DNA of 64,000 bases from a virus (IMGVR_UViG_3300037467_001552:4922-68921), one strand, 5' to 3'; shown: positions 20,587-43,657, counted from the first letter of the stretch. Made by a program: numbers and translations. Notes: a model not told the origin generated them from the sequence alone.

Positions 20587-20837
20587 GCTGCCCCGAGTGC
20601 AATTCCGGGCTCTGGATCCCGGCGTGCGGAATGCGCCTGTGCCTGCCCTGCGGCACGCGCTTCGTGGCGCCGTCAGGCGGCAGGGCGGCGGTCGACGCCC
20701 GCGAACGCGCCAGGCGGACGCCCGAACGCATCCGCGAGCAAACCCGCCGTGGCTACCTGCGCCGGCAGGCCCGCGCCGAGGCGGCCGAGAGCGGTCGCCC
20801 GGTCGAGCAGATCTATGCCGAATGGGGGGTCGCATGA
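20583..20837 (+). CDS. Zn-ribbon protein
   Basis: CPEC...CLPC at the N-terminus. Confidence 0.55.
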   Translation: MSCPECNSGLWIPACGMRLCLPCGTRFVAPSGGRAAVDARERARRTPERIREQTRRGYLRRQARAEAAESGRPVEQIYAEWGVA

Positions 20838-21058
20838 GCCGCCGCAACCCCTGCCTCGACGCCGCGATCACGGTGCTCCTGGAGCACGGCCTCTCCTACA
20901 TGGTCGAGTACGGCGGCAAGCATATCAAGCTGCGCTACTCGGTCGGCGGCCGCGCGTGCTGCCAGACCGTCCCCGTGTCCGGCAGCGACAAGCGCGGGCC
21001 GCTCAACACCCGCGGTCAGGTGCGGCGGTGCATTCGCGATGCGGGGGTGGGCGCGTGA
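20834..21058 (+). CDS. HicA-like small protein
   Basis: YGGKHIKLRY..TVPVSGSDKRGPLNTRGQVRR; HicA-type G-x-H motif. Confidence 0.55.
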   Translation: MSRRNPCLDAAITVLLEHGLSYMVEYGGKHIKLRYSVGGRACCQTVPVSGSDKRGPLNTRGQVRRCIRDAGVGA

Positions 21059-21507
21059 CCAACCCCTTCCTCGACCTCGCCGAAGCCCAGACCCCGCGCC
21101 CGGTGAAGGCGCGCCAGCAGGCTGCCCGCAAGGCGGCCGAGACCCGCGCGAACAACAAGCAGGAGGAGGAAGATCGCATCCTGCTCAGCCAGTTCCTGGC
21201 GCATCGCCGTGAGGAGCGCGAGAGCCTGCTCGCCGGCCCGTTCGGCGCCGAGGTCAAGGGCCTGCTGTCGTTCGCCCGGACCATGACGCTCCAGTCCGCG
21301 CCCGAGCTGATCGAGCGCGTCGCCCGCGCCGAATGGATCAAGACCATGTCGGTCGATGATAAATTTGTGCTCCTCCGAGTCATCAATACAGCAATCGTGA
21401 ATTTGCGGGTCCGCAATGGATTGGCGCCGTTAGACGATGCGCTTTGGTGCGATAGCCCGCGCGCGTTCCACATAGTCAAGACTCTGCTTGGGCTCGACGG
21501 CAAATGA
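21055..21507 (+). CDS. Hypothetical protein
   Basis: 150 aa, coupled to the nuclease gene. Confidence 0.65.
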   Translation: MTNPFLDLAEAQTPRPVKARQQAARKAAETRANNKQEEEDRILLSQFLAHRREERESLLAGPFGAEVKGLLSFARTMTLQSAPELIERVARAEWIKTMSVDDKFVLLRVINTAIVNLRVRNGLAPLDDALWCDSPRAFHIVKTLLGLDGK

Positions 21508-22580
21508 TCAAGAAAGCACTTGACCAGTTCGCCGCAGCCTCTAACAAATCTTGGCTCTTGGAGCGCTCCGCCACCGTTGGCGCATCGTCGGTCGGCCAAT
21601 GCGCGAGGAAGGTCTGGTTCGAAAAGAACGCGGACGATCCCGAGAGCCCGCAGCCTGATCCCGAGTACGTCGACCGCTGGGGGGCCAAGGAGCGCGGCAC
21701 CTTCTACGAGACGCACTTCTGGAACCCGGCCATGAAGATGGCCTTCGGGGACGACGCCCTCTTCTGCGGCGACGATCAGCGCACCCTCGTTCTCGACCTG
21801 CTCTCTGCGACCTCGGATCTCCTGCTCATCAATCGCGAGCGCGACTGCCTCAAACATCTCGGCGTTGAGGACATTGAGTCCGACTGCATCGTATCGGATT
21901 GCAAGACGAAGGATAGCCGGATCAATCTGGACAGCCTGCCCAAATCAGAAAACGTCTTCCAGATCCACACGCAGATCGGCTTGATCCGCGCCCTCACGCC
22001 GTACAAGCCCGTCTACGGCATCCTTTCGTACACGGATGCCTCGTGGTGGGACGAAGTTCACGAATTCCCCGTCCGCTTCGACCCGCAGGTCTTCGAGCAG
22101 GCCAAACTCCGCGCCCGCGACATCATGCTGGCGCAGAGCGCGCAAGCCCTGAAGCCGGAAGGCTTCATCGCCGGCGGTAAGGATTGCGACTACTGCGCGT
22201 TCACCCGCGCCTGCGGATCGGCGCGCGCGTCGTTCGTCCCGCGTGAGGAGAAGCCGATCGATCCGGCCACGACGGACAAGATCGCGAACCAGGCCAAGCT
22301 GGTGAGCGCGCTTGAGGAGAGCGCCGAGAACTACGCCAAGGAGGCGCGCGAGGCGAAGGCCATCCTGCGCGACATGCTCTCCGAGGCCGGAACGCGGCGG
22401 GTCGAGGGCGAGGGCGTCAAGGTTCGCTGGACCCAGACCAAGGGCAGGAAATCCGTCGACAACAAGGCGCTTCGCGAAGCGGCGGAAGCCGCCGGCATCG
22501 ACGTGAGCGCCTTCAACAAGATCGGCGCAGAGGGCGACCAGCTCGTGATTTCGGTCGGAGGCTCCGATGCAGCCGCGTGA
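21504..22580 (+). CDS. Cas4/AddB-like PD-(D/E)XK exonuclease with Fe-S cysteines
   Basis: [36 protein letters not shown]. Confidence 0.82.
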
Positions 22581-28008: not shown

Positions 28009-28734
28009 GTGGCGAACAAGCTGAACAAGATCCGCAAGCGGCTCGAGGCCAAGGCCACGCCGCAGCACAACAGCCGGATCGAGGCGCCCTATGTCGCCGC
28101 GCAGGTCCGCTATGTGCCGCTCGGCGAGGATGAGCGGATCTCGCCGCCCGCTATCGCCAACGACCTCACCTGGTACGCGATCATGGTCCGCCCCGGCACG
28201 CATCGCCGGGTGCTGGCGGCCATGAAGCGCGCCGCGATCGTCACCTACTGTCCGGTCGAGACGCGCTGGGCGTTCCGCGCCCGCTCGAACGTCAAGGAGG
28301 AGACGCAGCGCCCGCTGTTCGGCTCGATCCTGTTCATCGGCACCGATGAGCGCACGAACTGGGTCGCGATCCGGTTCAACGATGACGTGCCCGGCGTGCT
28401 TTCGAACTACGGCAAGCCGATCGCGATCCCGCGCGATGACCTGCGCGCGCTGGCCGACCGCGAGCGTTTCGGCGGGTTCAAGGGCGGCAAAGAAGACCTG
28501 CCGAAGCCCGCGGTCGAGCCCGAGCCCGTAGTGGTCACAGCCTCGGGGATCAAGCTCGGCGATGTCGCGCAATTCGGCGAGGGCATCTTCGTCGGCGCCG
28601 AGGTCGACGTCGTCGGCCTCCAGGATAACGAGGCCAAAGTGGTGCTCAAGCACTTCCGGTCCGCCTCGATCATGCGCGTGCCGGTGAGCATGTTGCAGCC
28701 GGTGGCGAAGGTTGAGGTCGAGGTAGTGGCATGA
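28009..28734 (+). CDS. NusG/RfaH-family transcription antiterminator
   Basis: NGN domain WYAIMVRPG..RPLFGSILFIG; KOW domain IKLGDVAQFGEGIFVG. Confidence 0.85.
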   Translation: MANKLNKIRKRLEAKATPQHNSRIEAPYVAAQVRYVPLGEDERISPPAIANDLTWYAIMVRPGTHRRVLAAMKRAAIVTYCPVETRWAFRARSNVKEETQRPLFGSILFIGTDERTNWVAIRFNDDVPGVLSNYGKPIAIPRDDLRALADRERFGGFKGGKEDLPKPAVEPEPVVVTASGIKLGDVAQFGEGIFVGAEVDVVGLQDNEAKVVLKHFRSASIMRVPVSMLQPVAKVEVEVVA

Positions 28735-33664: not shown

Positions 33665-34002
33665 GCGGCATCCTCTTCCGCCTCAGGCAGACGAAAGCCG
33701 TCCGCCTCGAGGCTCTTGATCAGGCGATAGACGATTTCGGCGTTCATGGAGCGCCCGTTCGCGCTGGCGATGGTCGCGATCTGGGCGCGCAGCGCTTCCG
33801 GCATCCTGATCTTGAACTGTGGCGAGTCCTGCGGGACGATAGGCATGGGCCTCATGAACGGGGAGGGCATCTTCTCCGTCACTGTCACTGAAGCCTCCGT
33901 GTCCTGAAAGTGACTCCAGATCAGTTCGAGCAGTGCGCGCGCAACGGCCTGATCGTCGCCGTCCGCGGCCAGTTCGACTAGGAAAGTGCGCTTCGACATC
34001 AC
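33661..34002 (-). CDS. Arc-like DNA-binding protein
   Basis: PQFKIRMPEALRAQIATIASANGRSMNAEIVYRL. Confidence 0.85.
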   Translation of the reverse strand: MMSKRTFLVELAADGDDQAVARALLELIWSHFQDTEASVTVTEKMPSPFMRPMPIVPQDSPQFKIRMPEALRAQIATIASANGRSMNAEIVYRLIKSLEADGFRLPEAEEDAA

Positions 34003-34553
34003 TGCGCCTCCAAAATCCGAAACACGCTGCGCGTGCCGATCCCAACGCGGCGCGCCGCCTCGGCCTTGCTGAAGCCTTCCGCGATCAGGGCCCGCACCTG
34101 ATCGGACTTGGCGAGCGCGGTCGGCGCACGGCCCTTGTACTTGCCCGCGGCTTTGGCCTTGTCGACGCCTTCGCGCTGGCGCTCGAGCATCATTTCCCGC
34201 TCGAACTGGGCGATCGAGGCCATGAGGTTCATCTGAAGTTTCCCGGTTGGCGTGCCGGTGTCGATGCCCAGGCTAACGACCCGGAGCGCTGCGCCCTTGG
34301 CCTCAAGCCGCGCTTGGATCGCGCAGAAATGCTGCACCGAGCGCGCAAGGCGGTCGAGCTTGGTCACGACCAACGTGTCACCCTCGCGGCAGTAGTCGAC
34401 CGCCGCCTCGAGCTGCGCGCGCGACGCGACCGATGACACCTGTTCCTGAAAGACCTTCTCGCAGCCGAGCGCTTTCAGGTCTCTGATCTGGGCCTCGAAA
34501 CCGGCGACTTGCTCGGCGGTCGAGGTGCGGGCGTAGCCGATAAGCATGGTCAC
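33999..34553 (-). CDS. Small serine recombinase (resolvase/invertase)
   Basis: IGYARTST catalytic Ser, VVTKLDRLARS, ERQREG, C-terminal HTH. Confidence 0.95.
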   Translation of the reverse strand: MTMLIGYARTSTAEQVAGFEAQIRDLKALGCEKVFQEQVSSVASRAQLEAAVDYCREGDTLVVTKLDRLARSVQHFCAIQARLEAKGAALRVVSLGIDTGTPTGKLQMNLMASIAQFEREMMLERQREGVDKAKAAGKYKGRAPTALAKSDQVRALIAEGFSKAEAARRVGIGTRSVFRILEAQ

Positions 34554-34852: not shown

Positions 34853-34885
34853 GATATCCTCTGGGCATCTGCCCGGTTGCGATGG

Positions 34886-35326
34886 TTAGATCTTAGCGTT
34901 CTGTTTGGCCGTGTCAACTGCGGACTTGAGCTTTCGCTGGCCTTCCTCAACAGCCGCCTCAATGGTCTCGACGCCGAGGCCGAGGCAGGCCAGCAGATAG
35001 AGCTGCATGGCCTCCGGTGCCGTTGACGTGCCGTTGGCGTACTTCGCCACGGTGACCGGGTGCGCGGCGACCAGCTCGGCCGCCTGGTCGTTCGTCAGCT
35101 CGAGCAGGTCGAGCACCTGGCCGAATGGCGCGCGTTCCTCGAACGGCTTGACCGGGCCAGGCCGACGCCGCGCCGGGATCTCGCCGCGGAAATCCGACTT
35201 CAGGCCGTTGGCCTTCAAGACCTGGCGCACACGCTCGCGCGATATGCCGAGGTCGTCCGCGATGGCCGATGTGTTCTTGCCCTTGGCGACGTTGTAGAGG
35301 GACAGGATCTGGTCTGCTGTGGACAT
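34886..35326 (-). CDS. Double-HTH DNA-binding protein
   Basis: IADDLGISRERVRQVL (sigma70 region-4-like) and XRE-like QAAELVAAHPVTVAKYANG. Confidence 0.75.
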   Translation of the reverse strand: MSTADQILSLYNVAKGKNTSAIADDLGISRERVRQVLKANGLKSDFRGEIPARRRPGPVKPFEERAPFGQVLDLLELTNDQAAELVAAHPVTVAKYANGTSTAPEAMQLYLLACLGLGVETIEAAVEEGQRKLKSAVDTAKQNAKI

Positions 35327-35366
35327 GGTGGCGGTTCCTTTGAACCCCTCAAGGGGATGGCTGATG

Positions 35367-35567
35367 TCAGTCGGCTAGTCCGCGCTGGCGCAGGAAGTCT
35401 TGAGCCATCGCCTTGAAGTCCGCGTTGTCCGGCAGGTCTTTATCCGCCGCGATGCATTCCTGGATGGTCATAAAGATCAGGTCTCGCTCATCCTCGGAGT
35501 CCGCATCGCGGTAGGCTTTGGCTAGCTCATCCCACTTCGGTTCGCCATTCTCGATTAAGACTTGCAT
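35367..35567 (-). CDS. Small acidic hypothetical protein
   Basis: MQVLIENGEPKWDELAKAY...; RBS ggaggatagg. Confidence 0.55.
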   Translation of the reverse strand: MQVLIENGEPKWDELAKAYRDADSEDERDLIFMTIQECIAADKDLPDNADFKAMAQDFLRQRGLAD

Positions 35568-35652
35568 CGTCCTATCCTCCGGTTTCGTGCCCCGACCTTC
35601 AGCGCACGGCGCTCCCCATCTGGCGTGATGGGGAGAACGGTGGGCTGTGGGG

Positions 35653-35955
35653 TCAACGATAGAACCGAACGGTTTCGGGCGCGTCATGCTCGGCCACAAC
35701 GTGAGCCTTAGCCGCCTCCCGATCGCGGGCCCGGAAGAACACCGTTTCGCCCGTGTGATCCATCGCCACCCAAAGCGCCTGGCCGAGGCCCCAGTAAGCG
35801 CCGCCGGCATCGTAACCGCCCGAGTTGAGGCGGACGCGCTGGAGCTGGAGCCGCTCGGCCGTATCCAGGTTGACCATGGTGCCGGAGCGCCGGCCCATCG
35901 GGGCGCCGTAGCGGCTGGAGACGTCCGGGGTCGGGTTGAAGGTCTGAGCGGTCAT
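35653..35955 (-). CDS. Conserved phage hypothetical protein
   Basis: SRYGAPMGR..LQRVRLNSGGYDAGGAYWG. Confidence 0.75.
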   Translation of the reverse strand: MTAQTFNPTPDVSSRYGAPMGRRSGTMVNLDTAERLQLQRVRLNSGGYDAGGAYWGLGQALWVAMDHTGETVFFRARDREAAKAHVVAEHDAPETVRFYR

Positions 35956-36030
35956 TGATCCGGTTCCTTCTGTTGGGCTGCTGCCCGGTTGCGATGAAGC
36001 TAACTTAGCTCACTGATTTCATCGTGTCAA

Positions 36031-36068
36031 CTAGGCCCCGACAAAAAAGTTGCGGGGCCTAGCGTTTT
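36031..36068. terminator. Hairpin abutting the -35 box of a cassette promoter
   Basis: ctaggccccg...cggggcctag then cgttttt. Confidence 0.5.
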
Positions 36069-36075
36069 TCTGGCC

Positions 36076-36192
36076 TCAGGGATCGTACCGCATGCGCCAG
36101 GCGAGCGCGGCCGATGCCAGGAACAGCATGGCGCACGTCGTGAGCACGCCCGAGCTGTAGGACAGGATTTCGATCGTCGTTTGCGCGTGCAT
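36076..36192 (-). CDS. Small membrane peptide
   Basis: MHAQTTIEILSYSSGVLTTCAMLFLASAALAWRMRYDP*. Confidence 0.4.
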   Translation of the reverse strand: MHAQTTIEILSYSSGVLTTCAMLFLASAALAWRMRYDP

Positions 36193-36196
36193 GGCG

Positions 36197-36607
36197 TCAC
36201 CGGGCCGGGACGCGATGCGGGAACGGCTTGCGGCAGTAGCGGAACTCCGCATCCACCTCGGCCTGGCGGCAGTCGAAGCGCGCGGGGTTGGCGGGGGATG
36301 AGGCTGGCAGCTCGCCGGCGCACCATTCCACTTCGGTGTCGGTCGCGGCGCGGCTGCAATCGTTCAGGCCGCCCCATTGGTTGCGGAAGTAGGCTTGAGG
36401 CGCGCCGTCCGCCTCGTCGTCGTCGGTCTCCGCATAGTCGGCGGGCGTTGCGCCAACGCATGCCTCTATCTGAACCGCGGTCGCGCTGGCCTTGCAGTAG
36501 CGTGCGCCGTCGACCGTGGTTCGCGTATGCGCATCGGCCGGCGTTGCGAGATAGACCGTGGCCGCCGTGGCGATGCCGCATGCGGCCGCAATGAGGATGG
36601 CGCGCAT
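36197..36607 (-). CDS. Secreted Cys-rich protein
   Basis: Signal peptide MRAILIAAACGIATAATVYLATPADA; several Cys. Confidence 0.55.
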   Translation of the reverse strand: MRAILIAAACGIATAATVYLATPADAHTRTTVDGARYCKASATAVQIEACVGATPADYAETDDDEADGAPQAYFRNQWGGLNDCSRAATDTEVEWCAGELPASSPANPARFDCRQAEVDAEFRYCRKPFPHRVPAR

Positions 36608-36817
36608 GTTAGCGGTTCCCCTTGCTGGCGTCACGGGCGTTGAGGATGGTGTGACCTGCCGCCCAGAGGGCACCGGTGGCCGTTGCCGCGCATGCGAGCG
36701 CTATTGCGATGATGGCTGTCATTGTCGTTCCTTGGGCTGCTGCCCGGTTGCGGTGTGATGTGAGCTAGGCACATCGTGCGAGGCCGGTTCGCACACCCGG
36801 CCTCGAGGCGATGGGTC

Positions 36818-37144
36818 TTAGCGGATGGCGCCGAGCAAGCGCGAGAGGCGGTTGTAGCTCGCCGGTGTGATGTTGCGCGGCGGGTGGAGCGAATAGCGGG
36901 TCTCTGCGCCAGTGTGAAAGTTGGTGTCCGTCCAGGTCGCCTCAAACCAACGGCCGCAATCCCAAACCGAGCTAGAGACCTGGCGAACCGCGCCGCGGAG
37001 GTCGAAAGCGTAATCGTTCAGATCCTCAACCCGGTCGAGCGTGTCACGGCCGCCGTTGGGGTGAACATAGCCGCGGTCAGCCGCGTCGCCTTCCTCCGCG
37101 CTCTCGGGGGTGACGGTCTCGTAAGTGACATGAAAGCGGACCAT
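36818..37144 (-). CDS. Hypothetical phage protein
   Basis: VTYETVTPESAEEGDAADRG..GAETRYSLH; RBS taggag. Confidence 0.7.
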   Translation of the reverse strand: MVRFHVTYETVTPESAEEGDAADRGYVHPNGGRDTLDRVEDLNDYAFDLRGAVRQVSSSVWDCGRWFEATWTDTNFHTGAETRYSLHPPRNITPASYNRLSRLLGAIR

Positions 37145-37239
37145 TTCCGTATCTCCTAGGGCTGCTGCCCGGTTGCGATGGGTGTAAGTTAGCCGATTGA
37201 TTTGGTGGTGTCAACTGGGGCCGGTGAAATTTTTTCGGG

Positions 37240-37356
37240 TTACAGCTTGAAGAAACGTGCCCGCAGGTAATCGGCATGCGCCGCGGCCTGCTCACGGGTG
37301 CGGAAGTCGAGGTCGAGGACACCGCCGGTCGGGAGAATGAAGCGGTAGAAGGTCAT
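37240..37356 (-). CDS. Small hypothetical protein
   Basis: MTFYRFILPTGGVLDLDFRTREQAAAHADYLRARFFKL*, first gene after the outermost cassette promoter. Confidence 0.5.
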   Translation of the reverse strand: MTFYRFILPTGGVLDLDFRTREQAAAHADYLRARFFKL

Positions 37357-37504
37357 TGGCTTGGCTTTCGTTTGGGCGGCTGCCCGGTTGCGATGAAGCT
37401 AACTTAGTCGATCGGTTTTGCGGTGTCAACAGGGCATCGCGATTTTTTTTCGGTGCGCCTCGAGCTGGCGTGCGACCGCCCGGCGAGCCTGCGGCGGCGA
37501 TGGC

Positions 37505-38037
37505 GGATTCTAAGAGATTTCTAAGAAATCGCCCGGTTTCGACGGCACTTCGCCGAGCAAGTGCCGTAAAGTGCCGTAGGTTCGCAAACGCCGATTTCTG
37601 GTGTCCCGCCAAGGGGTTAGCCGCGCAGCGAGCCTCCGCGGGGTACGGCAGTACGGCAGTTGGTACGGCACTTCGTTTTCGGAAGTGCCGTAGGGTTAAC
37701 CGCCTGAACCGCAAGGGGAATTCCCGCCGGTACGGCACTACGGCACTTTTTCCCTTACTCCACGTAGGAGAGGAAAATAGGAAAGGGGCGCGCCTGCCTG
37801 CCCGCGGGTGTGCGGGCCCGCGTTTATTCCCCGTGTAGCGCCAAGTTGGGTTTTTGGTGCCGTAGTGCCGTAAACGGCTCGGCAGCGCGGTTAAGTGCCT
37901 GCGGGGCAACGAAAAAAAGTACGGCACTTGGTACGGCACTTGGTACGGCACTTGTGGTTTCGAAGTGCCGTAAAGTGCCGTAAATGGCCCATTTCTGAAC
38001 GGACGTTCAGAATTTTCTTAGAAATCTCTTAGAATCC
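37505..38037. repeat. Iteron-rich non-coding locus bounded by perfect 24-bp inverted repeats (candidate pac/cos, ori or centromere)
   Basis: ggattctaagagatttctaagaaa (37505-37528) and its exact complement (38014-38037); 13 exact GTGCCGTA/TACGGCAC copies inside. Confidence 0.9.
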
Positions 38038-38675: not shown

Positions 38676-38952
38676 CCGTGCCGCACGGGCGGGGTCTAGC
38701 GGCACGCCCTGCCGCCTGCCCTCGCACCGTGCCACACGGGTCGAAGGCAGGCTTTTGGCACGGTCGTGCCTCAGGGTCCGGAGCCTAGCGGCACGGTGGG
38801 AGCCAGCAACCGTCGGCGGGCAGGGGGAGGGCCTCGACCACCCCCCCATGGTGTAGGTCGAGCGCGCCGGGGCGCGCACCCCACCCCGCACAGCACACCT
38901 CGTGTGTGACGGCTAGGAAAAAATACCAGTATCGCGCGTGACGGAGGCTTCG

Positions 38953-39105
38953 ATGGACCTGTGGCACATCTTCATGGCCGCGCTCACGATCGGCATGGGC
39001 TTCCGGCTCGGATCGCTCGCGGTTGAGGGCCTCTCAGATCTCTGCACGTTCACGATCGCCTGGTCGTTCGAGCGCTCCTCAGAAAAATCCACACATCGCG
39101 CGTGA
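38953..39105 (+). CDS. Small membrane protein
   Basis: MDLWHIFMAALTIGMGFRLGSLAVEGL...; its stop codon lies in a repeat copy. Confidence 0.5.
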   Translation: MDLWHIFMAALTIGMGFRLGSLAVEGLSDLCTFTIAWSFERSSEKSTHRA

Positions 39106-39165
39106 CGACACCCGAAATCCGTCTGCGCCCCAAAAAACCACCCCCTCGCGTGTGACGGAGGCCCG

Positions 39166-39423
39166 ATGGCTGACCCGATTATCCACGAAGCCCTCGTGAT
39201 CGAGGCTGCGGTCAACGGCGGTTACATCGTGACCAGTCACGGCACGCAAGGTTACCGTCCCGCCAACCTGTTCGCCGGCACGCTCGACGAGTGCTTCGCG
39301 TTCATCCGCAAGAGCATCCGGAAGGTCGAGGCGCCGAAGCCGCGCGCCGGGATGACGATCGACGTCAATGGCGAGCGCTTCAAGACCTTCCAGAAGATGG
39401 ATGGCAGTACCTGGTTCGCCTGA
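39166..39423 (+). CDS. Hypothetical protein (paralogue of next gene)
   Basis: LVIEAAVNGGYIV..FAGTLDECFAFIRK. Confidence 0.65.
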   Translation: MADPIIHEALVIEAAVNGGYIVTSHGTQGYRPANLFAGTLDECFAFIRKSIRKVEAPKPRAGMTIDVNGERFKTFQKMDGSTWFA

Positions 39424-39455
39424 AAACCACCCCTACGCGCGTGACGGAGCCCTCG

Positions 39456-39689
39456 ATGTCCGACACCCCTCCCGACATGCTGAGCATCGTGGCGGCCCGG
39501 GACGGCGGCTACTACGTCGTCGGCCGGGACAAGGTGGTCCGGTTCGCGGGCGACCTGGCGGCGGCGACGAGCTACGTGACCCGCACGATCCTGAAGGTCG
39601 AGCGCCCGCTCCCGCAGGTACGGTCGTACCAAGACTTCGGTCATGAGCCGGTCAAGCCGACCACCTGGCGGCCTTCGCTGTTTGCCTGA
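39456..39689 (+). CDS. Hypothetical protein (paralogue of previous gene)
   Basis: LSIVAARDGGYYVV..FAGDLAAATSYVTR. Confidence 0.65.
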   Translation: MSDTPPDMLSIVAARDGGYYVVGRDKVVRFAGDLAAATSYVTRTILKVERPLPQVRSYQDFGHEPVKPTTWRPSLFA

Positions 39690-39729
39690 CCCCAAAAAAT
39701 ACCAGACCCATCGCGTGACGGAGCCCCTG

Positions 39730-39927
39730 ATGCCGACCTGCGAGACCTGCAAGCTCTGGCGCCCGGAGGACCGTGCGGTCGAGGGCGAGCGGGAGCCCAA
39801 GCATCCCCGCGGCCGGTGCGGCAGTCTGGACGAGCGCGTCCCGGTCGGACCGGGGCACGGCGCCTTGAGCACGTTCCATGATTTCGGGTGCGTGGCGCAC
39901 GAGCCCAAAGACCCGGAAATCCATTAG
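39730..39927 (+). CDS. Small Cys-rich protein
   Basis: CETCKLW..GRC..FGCVAH. Confidence 0.6.
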   Translation: MPTCETCKLWRPEDRAVEGEREPKHPRGRCGSLDERVPVGPGHGALSTFHDFGCVAHEPKDPEIH

Positions 39928-40103
39928 GAAGCCCCAGGACGGGCGCGAGCCGTCCCGCTAGGGAATCTACCGTCCGTGAGCGCCAAAGCCGCCAGCGCGC
40001 CGGATTTCGCAAGCTAGGCCATATCCAGAGAATGGCACCACTGCTCTGCCGCGCTGCGGTTGAGCCCAAAAGCCCAAACCCCAACCCAAGTCTATCGGAT
40101 GAC

Positions 40104-41420
40104 ATGACTGACGGCATCAAGCTAACCCCAAAACAGAGTAATATCTACTATTGGGGATGGCAGCCGGAAGCAAGGTTTAGATATGCTTGCTGTGGTCGAA
40201 GGTTTGGCAAGTCGTTTTTGACGACGGCCGAGATTAGACGAGCGCTTAGACTTGCCGTTGAGCGCAACGTTTCTACCGACGACGAGGTCTGGTACGGATG
40301 TCCGACCTTCAAGCAGGGCAAACGTGTATTCTGGTCTAGGATAAAGCGAGCCATTCCGCGTTCGTGGATCCGCTCGACGAACGAGACCGAGTGCTACATG
40401 ACCTTGAAGACGGGCCACGTCTTCCGGATCGTCGGCCTCGACAACTACGACGCCTTGCGCGGATCCGGATTGTGGTTCTTCGCGGGCGACGAGTGGGCGG
40501 ATTGCCCTCCGCAAGCTTGGGACGAAGTTGTTCGCCCGATGCTGAGTACAGCTCAAGGTCATGCACTGTTCATCGGCACTGGAAAGGGGTACAATCACTT
40601 TTACGATGGTTGGCTTGCAGGTCAACCGAATGGCGACCCCGAGACAAAATCCTGGCTATACACCACGCTTGACGGCGGCAACGTTCCATCTCACGAGATT
40701 GAGCGCGCAAAGCGCGAGCTAGACCCAAGAACATATCGCCAGGAATACGAGGCAACCTTCGAAAGCTTCGGCGGACGAGTTTATTACTCGTTCGACCGCA
40801 AGGAAAGCGTCAAGCGCTGCGAGTTCAACCCGAACCTGGATGTCCGGGTCGGCATGGACTTCAACGTGAACCCGATGAGCGCCACGATCTGGCAGACTCA
40901 AGAGAACGGGGAGGATTGGCAAGTTCACGAGATCCAGATCCCCTCGTCGAACACGCACGAGATGTGTTTGGAACTCAAGCGCCGGTATGCGCGCACGAAC
41001 CTCATGCCAGAGCAGCAGGTCAAACACGTTCACATTTTCCCGGATCCGGCCGGCGCGCAGCGGCGCACCTCGGCACAGGGCGAGACGGATATCGGCATCC
41101 TCCGCAAGGAGGGGTTCACGGTGTTCGCGATGTCGAGCCACCCCTTGGTGCGCGACCGCATCAACGTGATGAACGCGCGGTTCCAGAACGCGGCAGGTGA
41201 GCGCAAGGCGTTCGTCGATCCGTCGTGCAAGAAGTCGATCGAGTCTTACGAGCGCCTCTCATTCAAGGAAGGCACATCGGACCCGGACAAGACGCAGACG
41301 TTCTTGTCTGACTCGTCAACTACGATTGATCATTTGCCCGATAGCGCGGGCTACATGTTCTACACCCTATATGGGAAGAACCCGACCCGCGCGATACATA
41401 TGCCGTTTATGGGAAGATAG
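40104..41420 (+). CDS. terL: Terminase large subunit
   Basis: CGRRFGKS Walker A, GDEWAD Walker B, GMDFN, DPAG, DHLPDSAGY nuclease acids. Confidence 0.95.
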   Translation: MTDGIKLTPKQSNIYYWGWQPEARFRYACCGRRFGKSFLTTAEIRRALRLAVERNVSTDDEVWYGCPTFKQGKRVFWSRIKRAIPRSWIRSTNETECYMTLKTGHVFRIVGLDNYDALRGSGLWFFAGDEWADCPPQAWDEVVRPMLSTAQGHALFIGTGKGYNHFYDGWLAGQPNGDPETKSWLYTTLDGGNVPSHEIERAKRELDPRTYRQEYEATFESFGGRVYYSFDRKESVKRCEFNPNLDVRVGMDFNVNPMSATIWQTQENGEDWQVHEIQIPSSNTHEMCLELKRRYARTNLMPEQQVKHVHIFPDPAGAQRRTSAQGETDIGILRKEGFTVFAMSSHPLVRDRINVMNARFQNAAGERKAFVDPSCKKSIESYERLSFKEGTSDPDKTQTFLSDSSTTIDHLPDSAGYMFYTLYGKNPTRAIHMPFMGR

Positions 41421-41473
41421 TTGACGCCGTCGACACGACAGGTTACTTTTCATGCAACATACACGAGGTTGGC

Positions 41474-42091
41474 ATGAAACAGCACCCTATTGTGATCAGC
41501 GATACGACCCAGGAATTCCTCGGGCGGCGCTACTACCTTTGCGGAAGGTACTTTCAGGATGCGGGCAAGCGCCTGCACCGTGCTGTTTGGGAACACCACA
41601 ACGGCGCGATCCCGAAGGGCATGCACGTCCATCACAAGGACGAGGATCGGTGCAACAACCGAATCGACAACCTCGAACTCATGAGCGCCTCCAAGCATAT
41701 GGAGCATCACATGAGCAGCGAGGAGCGGATCGCGTCAGCTCGCGAGGCCCTTAAGATCGGGCAACTTGCAGCCCCGGCCTGGCACGCCAGCGCCGAGGGC
41801 AAAGAGTGGCATCGGCAGAACTGGGAGAAGATGAAGCATCATCTCTTCAAGAAGATCCGGGCCACATGCACCTGCTGCGGGCGTGAATACGAAGCTACGG
41901 ACAACGGCAAAGATCACAAGTTCTGCTCAAAGAACTGCAAGGCGCAAGCCAGAAGAGACTCTGGCATCGACAACATCGAGAAGACTTGCCAAAGATGCGG
42001 CGGCAAGTTCATGCATAACAAGTATGCAAAACGAAAGTTTTGCTTTGCTTGTCAGGAAGATCGCGTGAACGCGCTCCGGTCGCAATCATGA
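41474..42091 (+). CDS. HNH homing endonuclease with C-terminal zinc ribbons
   Basis: LHRAVWE..VHHKDEDRCNNRIDNLEL; CTCC..CSKNC..CQRC..CFAC. Confidence 0.88.
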   Translation: MKQHPIVISDTTQEFLGRRYYLCGRYFQDAGKRLHRAVWEHHNGAIPKGMHVHHKDEDRCNNRIDNLELMSASKHMEHHMSSEERIASAREALKIGQLAAPAWHASAEGKEWHRQNWEKMKHHLFKKIRATCTCCGREYEATDNGKDHKFCSKNCKAQARRDSGIDNIEKTCQRCGGKFMHNKYAKRKFCFACQEDRVNALRSQS

Positions 42092-42115: not shown

Positions 42116-43657
42116 ATGTTCAGAACCATCTACGGCGGCATCCAGCGCGATACGGACTACCCCGAGCGGCAGTTCACCCTGGACGTCTACAACCGCGTCC
42201 TTGAGGGCGCGATCTACGAGCACCTTCCTTACGGCTTCCACGAAGAGAAGTCGCCGAGCCAGGAGTACATCCCGCTCCGGCAACGGCGGCCGTGCGTGCG
42301 CTCGAACCTGGCGCGCGTCGTGGTCGAGGACGTCGCCTCGCTGGTGTTCGGCGAGGGTCGGTTCCCGAAGGTCGATTGCGGTGAGAACGCCGACGCCGAG
42401 GAGGCGTTGCTGCGCCTCTCCAAGGACGCACGGCTCAACGACATCATGGTCGACGCGGTCACCCGCGGCTCGGTCGGCTCGATCGCGATCCACATGCGCG
42501 TGCTCAAGCAGCGCGAGGGCAAGGACCGCTACCGCGCCTTCTTCGATGTCCACGACACGCAGTTCTTGGAGCCTGAGTTCGACCCGACCTGCCCCGACCG
42601 GCTGATCGCCGTGCGGGAGCGCTACAAGGTCAAGGGCGAGCAGCTCAAGGCGCTCGGCTATGAGATCCCCGACGACGCCGGGGCGCTCGATTTCTGGTTC
42701 GGGAGGGACTGGAACGAGCAGGAAGAGATTTGGTGGCAGCCCTGGCCGGTCTCGGCCGAGGAGCCCGCCATGGTCAAGGACGGCGCGCGGTCCGTCCCGC
42801 ACGGCCTTGGATTTTGTCCGTGGGTGTGGGTGAAGAACCTGCCCGGCCGTTTGCGCCTGCTGCCGGAGATCGGCCTGACCGGATCCGCCATGCGGTTCAG
42901 CGATGTCGATGGCACCTGCACCTTCGCGGCTTCGATCGAGACCGTGATGGAGATCGACTACCTGCTCAGCCAGGGCGGCCGCGGCCTGAAGTACAGCATG
43001 GACCCCATGCTGATGCTCAAAGAGCCGGCCGCTCCGATGGACTCCAACGGCGAGATCCTGAAGAGCCCGAGCAACGTGCTGATCACCTCCGAGAAGGGTG
43101 ACGCCAAGCTGCTTGAGATCTCCGGCAACGGGTTCACGACCATGCTGGAGTTCGTGCGGACGCTCCGCGAGACCGCGCTCGAGGCGATCCACGGCAACCG
43201 CGCCAGCCCCGAGAAGCTCAGCGCCGCCCAGTCGGGCCGGGCGATGGAACTGCTCAACATGGCGCTGATCTGGTTGGCGGAGAAAAAGCGCTCGACCTAC
43301 GGCGAGGGCGCGCTCTTGTCCCTGTTCCGGATGGCCTTGGCGGCGAATGAGAAATTCCCGCTTTACGCCGCCGGCAAACAGCTCGGGGACTTCGCTCCCG
43401 AGACCGCCATGGCGCTCAAGTGGCAGCCGTGGTTCACGCCGACCTTCCAGGATCGCAAGGACATGGCGCTGACCGTGACTGAGCACCGGAAGTCGCACAC
43501 CCTGTCGCGCGAGACCGCCGTGAAGGCGGTGGCCGGCATGTACGACATTGAAGATCCCGCCAGCGAGATCGCCAAGATCACGGCTGACGAGGCTGCGGAA
43601 GTCGCCCTGCTCGCGACCCTGAAGGGCGCCGGTCAGGTCCGCAACAACGACGTGTAA
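42116..43657 (+). CDS. Portal protein
   Basis: 513 aa after terL; PHGLGFCPWVW, SGRAM motifs of SPP1-like portals. Confidence 0.85.
   Translation: MFRTIYGGIQRDTDYPERQFTLDVYNRVLEGAIYEHLPYGFHEEKSPSQEYIPLRQRRPCVRSNLARVVVEDVASLVFGEGRFPKVDCGENADAEEALLRLSKDARLNDIMVDAVTRGSVGSIAIHMRVLKQREGKDRYRAFFDVHDTQFLEPEFDPTCPDRLIAVRERYKVKGEQLKALGYEIPDDAGALDFWFGRDWNEQEEIWWQPWPVSAEEPAMVKDGARSVPHGLGFCPWVWVKNLPGRLRLLPEIGLTGSAMRFSDVDGTCTFAASIETVMEIDYLLSQGGRGLKYSMDPMLMLKEPAAPMDSNGEILKSPSNVLITSEKGDAKLLEISGNGFTTMLEFVRTLRETALEAIHGNRASPEKLSAAQSGRAMELLNMALIWLAEKKRSTYGEGALLSLFRMALAANEKFPLYAAGKQLGDFAPETAMALKWQPWFTPTFQDRKDMALTVTEHRKSHTLSRETAVKAVAGMYDIEDPASEIAKITADEAAEVALLATLKGAGQVRNNDV

Follow-up and report, generated by a model that had tools for sequence, protein, structure and literature searches.

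What holds a short repeated sequence constant in front of one small gene after another, between two terminase genes that usually lie side by side? The question is posed by an IMG/VR virus record of 68,921 bp (IMGVR_UViG_3300037467_001552; rated complete by CheckV, G+C ~65%), of which we analysed bases 4922-68921; this stretch of 64,000 nt is called the window, and positions are counted from its first letter. The small-terminase gene terS and the large-terminase gene terL are here separated by 1428 nt that contain four small open reading frames (ORFs), g1 to g4, and a direct repeat runs through the interval in five strong copies and one partial copy (38896-39732), all on the + strand. We propose, at a probability of about one half, that the repeat is a portable leader of ~40 nt for accessory ORFan genes that the rightward packaging operon carries between its two terminase genes. 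Judged from its sequence and setting, the leader most likely functions as a translational-control element.

Each unit begins with a tract of five or six A residues (four in R4), continues through a spacer of 11-12 nt that is nearly devoid of G, and ends in the core CGCG(Y)GTGACG, which is invariant, 11 nt long and abuts the Shine-Dalgarno (SD) sequence. When the copies are aligned, the core of R1, R3, R4 and R5 runs into GAG(G/C)C and then, after another 3-5 nt, into ATG; these four copies have GGAG joined to the core, and the start codon lies 5-7 nt after GGAG. A repeat search grouped the five strong copies at 31 nt with 62-87% identity and start-to-start spacings of 164, 50, 289 and 274 nt, and the most similar pair of leaders is R3 and R4 (87%). 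All six copies that had been picked out in the initial annotation of this DNA are in place, and four of them do, as it held, supply the ribosome-binding site and start, in the form of GGAG plus the ATG with which the ORFs of 50, 85, 77 and 65 aa begin (Table 1). Likewise, one gene does stop inside a repeat: the 50-aa ORF ends at the TGA at 39103-39105, within the GTGACG of R2, the copy that begins at 39082.

Is the repeat maintained by selection? Two relatives, G001 (70.4 kb) and G002 (71.2 kb), are collinear with the window's own phage (G000) at a nucleotide identity of ~70-90%. Between orthologous copies, the core differs at 0 of 88 positions, the A-tract at 1 of 48, the stretch from SD to ATG at 14 of 95, and the spacer, whose length is kept while its letters are free, at 25 of 73 (34%). 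A Fisher test of spacer against core gives 2e-10, the compared pairs being not fully independent. Since the A-tract and core are frozen while the spacer and the adjacent codons drift, we conclude that the repeat is under selection. For example, R1 has the same core and A-tract in G001 and G002, with a spacer that differs in each. Similarly, R5 is letter-identical in G002 from the A-tract through the ATG (it is absent from G001), and ~49 nt covering R0 and the R1 A-tract are identical in all three genomes, the DNA upstream being unrelated in G001. We also built a profile from 12 copies of the three genomes, against which member copies score 21-29 bits. R2 scores 25-28 bits in all three genomes, and its tail in G001 and G002 reads as an R3-like leader minus one G, with ATG changed to AAT; the partial copy R0 scores 7.7 bits. 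This pattern of constraint points to a functional two-part motif, not to recent shared descent or a decaying duplication. The initial annotation had allowed that the motif might reduce to an ordinary ribosome-binding site; the part upstream of the ribosome-binding site is conserved well beyond that.

The same counts bear on another proposal of the initial annotation, serial duplication, in which the copies would be functionless relics left by the tandem duplication of one leader-plus-gene unit. The paralogy of g2 and g3, which had been noted earlier, is borne out: their 85- and 77-aa proteins are 33% identical (E 3e-7), and the identity rises to as much as 41% (E 9e-11) against the G002 orthologue. 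Their leaders are the most similar pair, and all leaders are clearly homologous through the ATG. However, protein comparison finds g1, g4 and gX, an unrelated 88-aa ORF that takes the position of g1 in G002, to be unrelated to g2 and g3 and to one another; four unrelated protein families thus stand behind one leader. Furthermore, the cores are still identical in front of paralogues that have diverged down to 33% identity, and 0 of 88 changes in the core against 34% in the spacer cannot be neutral. Duplication explains the g2/g3 pair. As an account of the leaders it is largely refuted, with four families sharing a leader too well conserved for a relic, and we regard it as very unlikely.

What are the genes behind the leader? 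None of g1 to g4 has a Pfam or PHROG family match. Orthologues of the array genes agree at 61-85% of their third codon positions, and in g1 and g4 these positions vary more than the first and second, so that at least those two are real genes. The g1 orthologue in G001 is 76% identical, with codon-position identities of 0.84/0.94/0.74, the third being the most variable. In g4, whose orthologues are 86-91% identical, third positions are again the most variable. The g4 family has 69 matches at E<=1e-3, mostly proteins of 60-107 aa, and in 50 aligned members C4, C7, W10, C30 and C54 are invariant and H57 nearly so (C-x2-C ... C ... DFGC-x2-HE). An AlphaFold2 (AF2) model has a predicted local distance difference test (pLDDT) score of 81. 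The leads for g4 are all weak, to high-potential iron-sulphur proteins (HiPIP) and to benzylsuccinate-synthase small subunits, so that it may be a small Fe-S or metal-binding phage protein. The idea that g4 is a Com-like RNA-binding zinc finger that reads the core is unsupported, the weak leads pointing to HiPIP-like metal-cluster folds.

How do these genes come and go? The order in G000 is R0 R1-g1 R2 R3-g2 R4-g3 R5-g4. In G001 it is R0 R1-g1 R2 R3-g2' g4, with R4, g3 and R5 missing and g4 overlapping the g2' stop (ATGA), and in G002 it is R0 R1-gX R2, followed by 103 nt of unrelated filler, a hybrid repeat, g3 and R5-g4. The swap between g1 and gX has its left border just past the R1 ATG and its right border at the R2 A-tract. 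The repeat before g3 in G002 joins the 5' flank and A-tract context of R3 to the 3' part of R4, and g2 is absent; R3 is present in G001, and just its 5' half is left in this G002 hybrid. This may reflect the loss of g2 through recombination between R3 and R4, or its gain through the reverse event. In the three-genome alignment, three of the four differences in gene content are bounded by repeats. The terS-terL interval measures 1428 nt in G000, ~2041 nt in G001 and ~6409 nt in G002 (1.4, 2.0 and 6.4 kb); the comparison of intervals that the initial annotation called for therefore finds a variable gene content, with most of the differences at conserved repeats. The G001 interval additionally holds a 78-aa ORF and, by eye, a candidate leftward ORF, and that of G002 a leftward HNH gene, a further HNH gene and a block of genes for virion structural proteins. 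The ~3.5 kb of extra genes between array and terL in G002 (L006:1520-5040) match nothing in G000 at the nucleotide level; among them are two PHROG 'virion structural protein' matches and an alanine/threonine-rich repeat protein.

That terS and terL usually adjoin had been stated in the initial annotation, and it holds among 22 more distant phages with a locatable terS C-terminal motif, the terL start being extrapolated from tblastn. In 19 of them terS ends within about 40 nt of the terL start, a few overlapping, and in the other three an HNH gene or two small ORFs lie between. The ancestral arrangement was probably terS abutting terL. Because distant phages also vary at this junction, we take it to be a general insertion point, at which the repeat-headed array is found in this clade only.

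A search of the genome for the motif finds every copy confined to the array. CGYGTGACG occurs five times in the window when both strands are searched, and all five lie on the + strand in the 786 nt of 38935-39720; as a count this is ordinary (4.0 expected), but the clustering is unusual. The complete 68,921-bp genome has four occurrences of CGYGTGACGGAG, each of them in the array. On both strands of the three whole genomes, the best profile match outside the family reaches 8 bits, and the absence of any extra copy on either strand rules out a genome-wide regulatory motif. An additional GTGACGGAG at 33874 (-) lies inside a coding frame and is not a repeat copy. In IMG/VR, the pattern AAAA-N8-14-CGCGYGTGACGGAG-N5-8-ATG matches G001, G002 and the window's own genome only, and in the JGI metagenomes it gives 13 single matches that are dissimilar to these phages; the bare 14-mer of the motif gives chance single matches only. 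The repeat is absent from 148 loci around related terL genes, where an 11.5-bit match in L025, among leftward ORFs ~1.5 kb upstream of terL, looks like chance. Searches with terS and g4 found no relatives beyond G001 and G002, and a distant g4 homologue in L217 has no such leader. TerL relatives at <=67% identity come mostly from Acetobacteraceae assemblies, others from Ralstonia, Moraxellaceae and Acidobacteriaceae assemblies and from Ralstonia and Komagataeibacter phages, and the motif is in none of them. Since it is missing outside G000-G002, the repeat belongs to one small clade.

What could such a leader do? We infer that it is a portable translation-start or regulatory element, whose copies may double as recombination homology. 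terS, the four small ORFs, terL, the HNH gene and the portal gene all lie on the + strand, and genes of the array, sitting in a rightward packaging operon, would need only a translation start. In a messenger of 65% G+C, the A-tract and G-poor spacer could form an unstructured landing platform for the ribosome. The start windows of the array genes (-40 to +20) fold at -7.6 to -10.1 kcal/mol, and runs of five or more A are rare, with 37 on both strands of the window and four in the array. Ribosome contacts do not explain the invariant GC-rich core, and for this reason we read the core as the site of a trans-acting regulator: a protein or RNA that would bind beside the SD and control translation of the whole set together. 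Against what we take to be the alphaproteobacterial 16S 3' tail, which may not be that of the host, no pairing of the core is convincing except at GGAGG. As DNA, the direct copies would offer 15-40 nt of homology, which recombination functions of the phage or host could use to delete, swap and probably import single-gene cassettes, as the promoter-early stem-loop (PeSL) cassettes of T4-type phages do. A RecE-like recombination exonuclease gene at 21504-22580 (phrog_434, 2e-11) is a candidate for such a role. The adjacent 252-aa ORF (20749-21507), which has no family match, could be an annealase.

A structured RNA or terminator was rejected. RNAalifold finds 0 pairs in a consensus of the repeats, single copies fold no better than shuffles on either strand, and Rfam has no match for the repeat; terminator-like matches on the minus strand depend on G-T pairs and are not common to all copies.

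Several points weigh against a translational leader shuffled as a cassette border. The evidence base is three genomes, which are all that is known of the clade, and two of them share one sample. The energies of the array starts are set against a background (-16.9 +/- 6.0 kcal/mol for 38 other starts of the genome) whose start set is heuristic. The 103-nt filler in G002 implies that the history was not a single clean crossover, and the G001 deletion, between g2' and g4, is not at a repeat. An antisense partner for the core was not found in the three phages, where the profile search gives no reverse-strand match above 7 bits, and g4 looks like a metal-cluster protein, not a nucleic-acid binder. 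An RNA-level reading is weakest at R2, where SD and ATG are lost and yet all three genomes retain the A-tract and core. A downstream start is thus not strictly required for conservation, and R2 favours a DNA-level or RNA-processing role, or else reflects a partial coding constraint from g1.

Because R2 is kept without any start, a DNA-level site is a serious rival, though on balance we think it unlikely. The repeats would then be double-stranded sites for a sequence-specific protein, whether for packaging or terminase recognition, as a set of operators, or as the target of site-specific or homing recombination. The invariant A-tract and 11-bp core lie about two helical turns apart with a free spacer between them, as such a protein might require, and the partial R0 is, like R2, conserved without a start codon; yet the fixed fusion to SD and ATG goes unexplained. 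Other DNA repeats abound in this region next to terS, but terS is ~50% different among the three phages while the repeats are identical. HNH genes recur in the interval of G002 and of outgroup phages, although the interval is without a recombinase and the off-repeat position of the G001 deletion speaks against recombination at these sites. The repeats also have neither dyad symmetry nor inverted-repeat arms, and no gix-like site for a serine recombinase: AAAACC presumably resembles the gix/hix half-sites, and no dyad was found with it. An invertase crossover site was rejected likewise, the AAACC-NN-GGTTT dyad being absent from the window. A related and rather improbable possibility is that the repeat is the dedicated DNA target of a putative phage recombination or homing function, which would make the terS-terL interval a platform for acquiring gene cassettes, a phage counterpart of an integron with a different, 5'-leader-type site, or that the core is the operator of a novel translational regulator that would switch a mobile set of accessory genes as one regulon.

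Could each repeat instead be a promoter, with one transcription unit per cassette? Either a phage-specific or alternative sigma factor might read it, or the A-tract might act as an UP element ahead of a -35-like GTGACG. Two blocks at a fixed spacing of 11-12 nt resemble promoter design, GTGACGG is presumably similar to the TTGACGS -35 of Caulobacter-type promoters, and R2 is conserved without SD or ATG. However, the core touches the SD, so that any transcript begun under its direction would have its 5' end at the SD or past it and could not include that SD in a leader, and the sequence 16-19 nt downstream of GTGACG is coding and different in every copy, with no common -10. No sigma70-like promoter is found in 38896-39927, the sole + strand candidate in 34.5-42.2 kb being at 38006-38035, upstream of terS. 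A neighbouring leftward array (34863-37429) has an A-tract ~15 nt upstream of TTGACA, which would suit a promoter; against this, the repeat has no significant similarity to the promoter units of that array, for 47 of 300 shuffles score as well, and a common origin with these promoter-hairpin units (34.9-37.4 kb) was rejected on the same count. Moreover, a class of phage promoters would be expected to recur, and this motif has no other occurrence in the 69 kb. We consider a promoter function quite unlikely. A sigma54 promoter at TGGCACGGTCGTGC (38757) was also rejected on inspection, its GG-to-GC spacing being one base short; the sequence is better read as a GGCAC/GTGCC dyad.

The initial annotation had further raised integron-like capture, in which a site-specific integrase inserts promoterless cassettes at attC-like sites. 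The array does resemble an integron in its co-oriented, promoterless, single-gene cassettes, which vary in number between relatives and are split by a recurrent site. But an attC site lies 3' of its cassette, whereas the repeats lie 5' of the genes and include the ribosome-binding site; they are direct, without the paired inverted-repeat arms of attC, and unstructured as RNA on either strand (RNA folding parameters). No recombinase gene was found in or beside the terS-terL interval, and the interval, which holds only terS, the four ORFans and terL, is without an intI-type tyrosine integrase with attI and a Pc promoter, the whole genome not having been screened for tyrosine recombinases. The sole recombinase checked, of the invertase type, lies 5 kb off on the other strand. 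Integron-like capture thus fell away, and we hold it to be extremely improbable.

Table 1. Features of the terS-terL region and of genes named in the text
Feature	Coordinates	Strand	Remarks
Serine recombinase, invertase-type	33999-34553	-	5 kb from array
terS, small terminase, Sf6-like, 204 aa	38061..38675	+	Pfam PF20901 9.3e-19; phrog_1482 4.7e-23
Non-coding spacer	38676..38872		Many GGCAC/GTGCC dyads; outside the repeat family
Array head: C/A-rich stretch and partial copy R0 (38896-38912)	38873..38917	+	R0 has the core only; no A-tract, SD or ATG
R1	38918..38955	+	A6, spacer, core, GGAGG, ATG of g1
g1, 50 aa, hydrophobic small protein	38953..39105	+	Stop TGA inside GTGACG of R2
R2, relic	39082..39130	+	A5, spacer and core intact, SD and ATG lost; conserved tail to ~39130
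R3	39132..39168	+	A6, spacer, core (Y = T), GGAGG, ATG of g2
g2, 85 aa, ORFan, g3 paralogue	39166..39423	+	59% identity in G001; absent from G002
R4	39423..39458	+	A4 beginning in g2 stop codon, spacer, core, GGAGC, ATG of g3
g3, 77 aa, ORFan, g2 paralogue	39456..39689	+	65% identity in G002; absent from G001
R5	39694..39732	+	A6, 12-nt spacer, core, GGAGC, ATG of g4
g4, 65 aa, four-cysteine small protein	39730..39927	+	Sole array gene in all three phages
Spacer upstream of terL	39928..40103	+	A/C-rich, G-poor leader with CCCAAAA-type words; no repeat copy
terL, large terminase, 438 aa	40104..41420	+	phrog_2 1.4e-36
HNH endonuclease	41474-42091	+
Portal gene	42116-43657	+

The genes on either side had been named as terS and terL, and the Pfam and PHROG matches (9e-19 and 5e-23 for terS, 1e-36 for terL) confirm both. 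terL is 85% identical to its counterpart in G001 and 81% in G002, terS just 49% and 53%, and the G+C content of 40001-42000 (terL and the HNH gene) is 0.566 against ~0.65 for the remainder; from these differences we place a mosaic junction at the right end of the array. In the terL leader (40040-40135), which is A/C-rich and G-poor, CCCAAAA words recur, and the terL start region is the least structured of those tested (-5.3 kcal/mol). The ends of the G001 record (L205/L208) overlap by ~168 nt at 98.8% identity, so that the record, labelled linear, is effectively circular or terminally redundant, with its break between array and terL.

On the other side of the array, GGCAC/GTGCC dyads (CCGTGCCGCACGG, GGCACGGTCGTGCC and TAGCGGCACG, the last twice) extend past the 3' end of terS (38676-38872; also 37505-38037). 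Because they continue downstream of the gene, terS is bracketed by a GTGCCGTA iteron field. The counterpart of this spacer is similar in G002, and in G001 it consists of unrelated CGGAC-type repeats. Since G002 keeps the GGCAC type with a terS of 53% identity, while G001 (terS 49%) has the CGGAC type, there is no obvious simple link between terS and the dyads. We also note that HNH genes recur near the terminase genes (41474-42091, between terL and portal; L213:5621-6133 (-); L006:5454-6035; L021, L032): G002 has two of them within its terS-terL interval, and in two outgroup phages such a gene lies immediately between the terminase genes. Elsewhere in the window, 28009-28734 has a PHROG 'transcription antiterminator' match.

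How does the array compare with known systems? It is not a clustered regularly interspaced short palindromic repeats (CRISPR) array: the spacings of its copies are unequal, the intervals are protein-coding and the copies are 62-87% alike. The initial annotation had pointed to the start-associated sequences (SAS) of cluster K mycobacteriophages, asymmetric SD-containing motifs that lie 3-7 bp before mostly ATG starts and that were described, together with an extended form (ESAS), by Pope et al. 2011 (PMC3203893); their function was still untested in 2025 (PMC12699233). The repeat resembles them in being an asymmetric SD-containing sequence before a start, in one orientation and heading unrelated families, conserved beyond 16S pairing and absent elsewhere in the genome. 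For example, in four copies, each on the + strand, 3-5 nt separate the end of GTGACGGAG(G/C)C from the ATG. However, R4 and R5 share just GGAGCCC with the SAS consensus 5'-GGGATAGGAGCCC (<=2 mismatches allowed; PMC3203893, PMC12699233) in a comparison made by eye, not a formal scan. The SAS is a 13-mer present in 7-19 copies across the non-structural arm, whereas the repeat is longer and two-part, and its 5-6 copies form one array within 840 nt between terS and terL. Likewise, the ESAS has an inverted repeat and the repeat has none. Unlike the SAS, the copies here coincide with borders of gene gain, loss and swap, and they occur in a phage of unrelated lineage with a Gram-negative-like host. 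The comparison with SAS is therefore fair as an analogy but not as membership, and the interpretation offered in the initial annotation as a whole is partly supported.

The second comparison is with the PeSL cassettes of T4-type phages, in which repeated regulatory units allow recombination to shuffle ORFans (Arbiol et al. 2010, PMC2839356; PMC4122927). Both systems have a hyperplastic region in which small, non-essential ORFans are flanked by short regulatory units in repeated copies, and the insertions, deletions and replacements that distinguish close relatives map to the units, in keeping with recombination between these, as they do in the three of four content differences here that are bounded by repeats. 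A PeSL, however, is made of a strong sigma70 promoter and a terminator stem-loop and is found in excised mini-circles of one unit plus a gene; the repeat has neither the promoter nor the stem-loop, and carries an SD and ATG instead. Similarly, the other array of the same phage has a repeated control unit before small genes. Its unit is leftward, ~100 nt long and composed of TTGACA-17-TAAGTT and a conserved hairpin leader, and in both arrays the unit begins with an A-tract just past the upstream stop codon.

Leaders that recur at gene starts are now being found in many phage lineages. The present locus leaves established views unchanged, and it is compact and clean, with 5-6 copies to compare across three genomes. 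The A-tract and core, which are constrained, can be separated from a drifting spacer, and a single locus displays both selection on the leader and most gene swaps at its copies. It could be a suitable system in which to ask whether leaders of this type act as translational operators, and how phages add ORFans inside an essential operon without breaking it. By analogy, the repeat would work like both SAS and PeSL while being a member of neither. The kind of phenomenon is already known in phages; what is new here is the sequence, its unusual location between terS and terL, and the clear two-part constraint on it.

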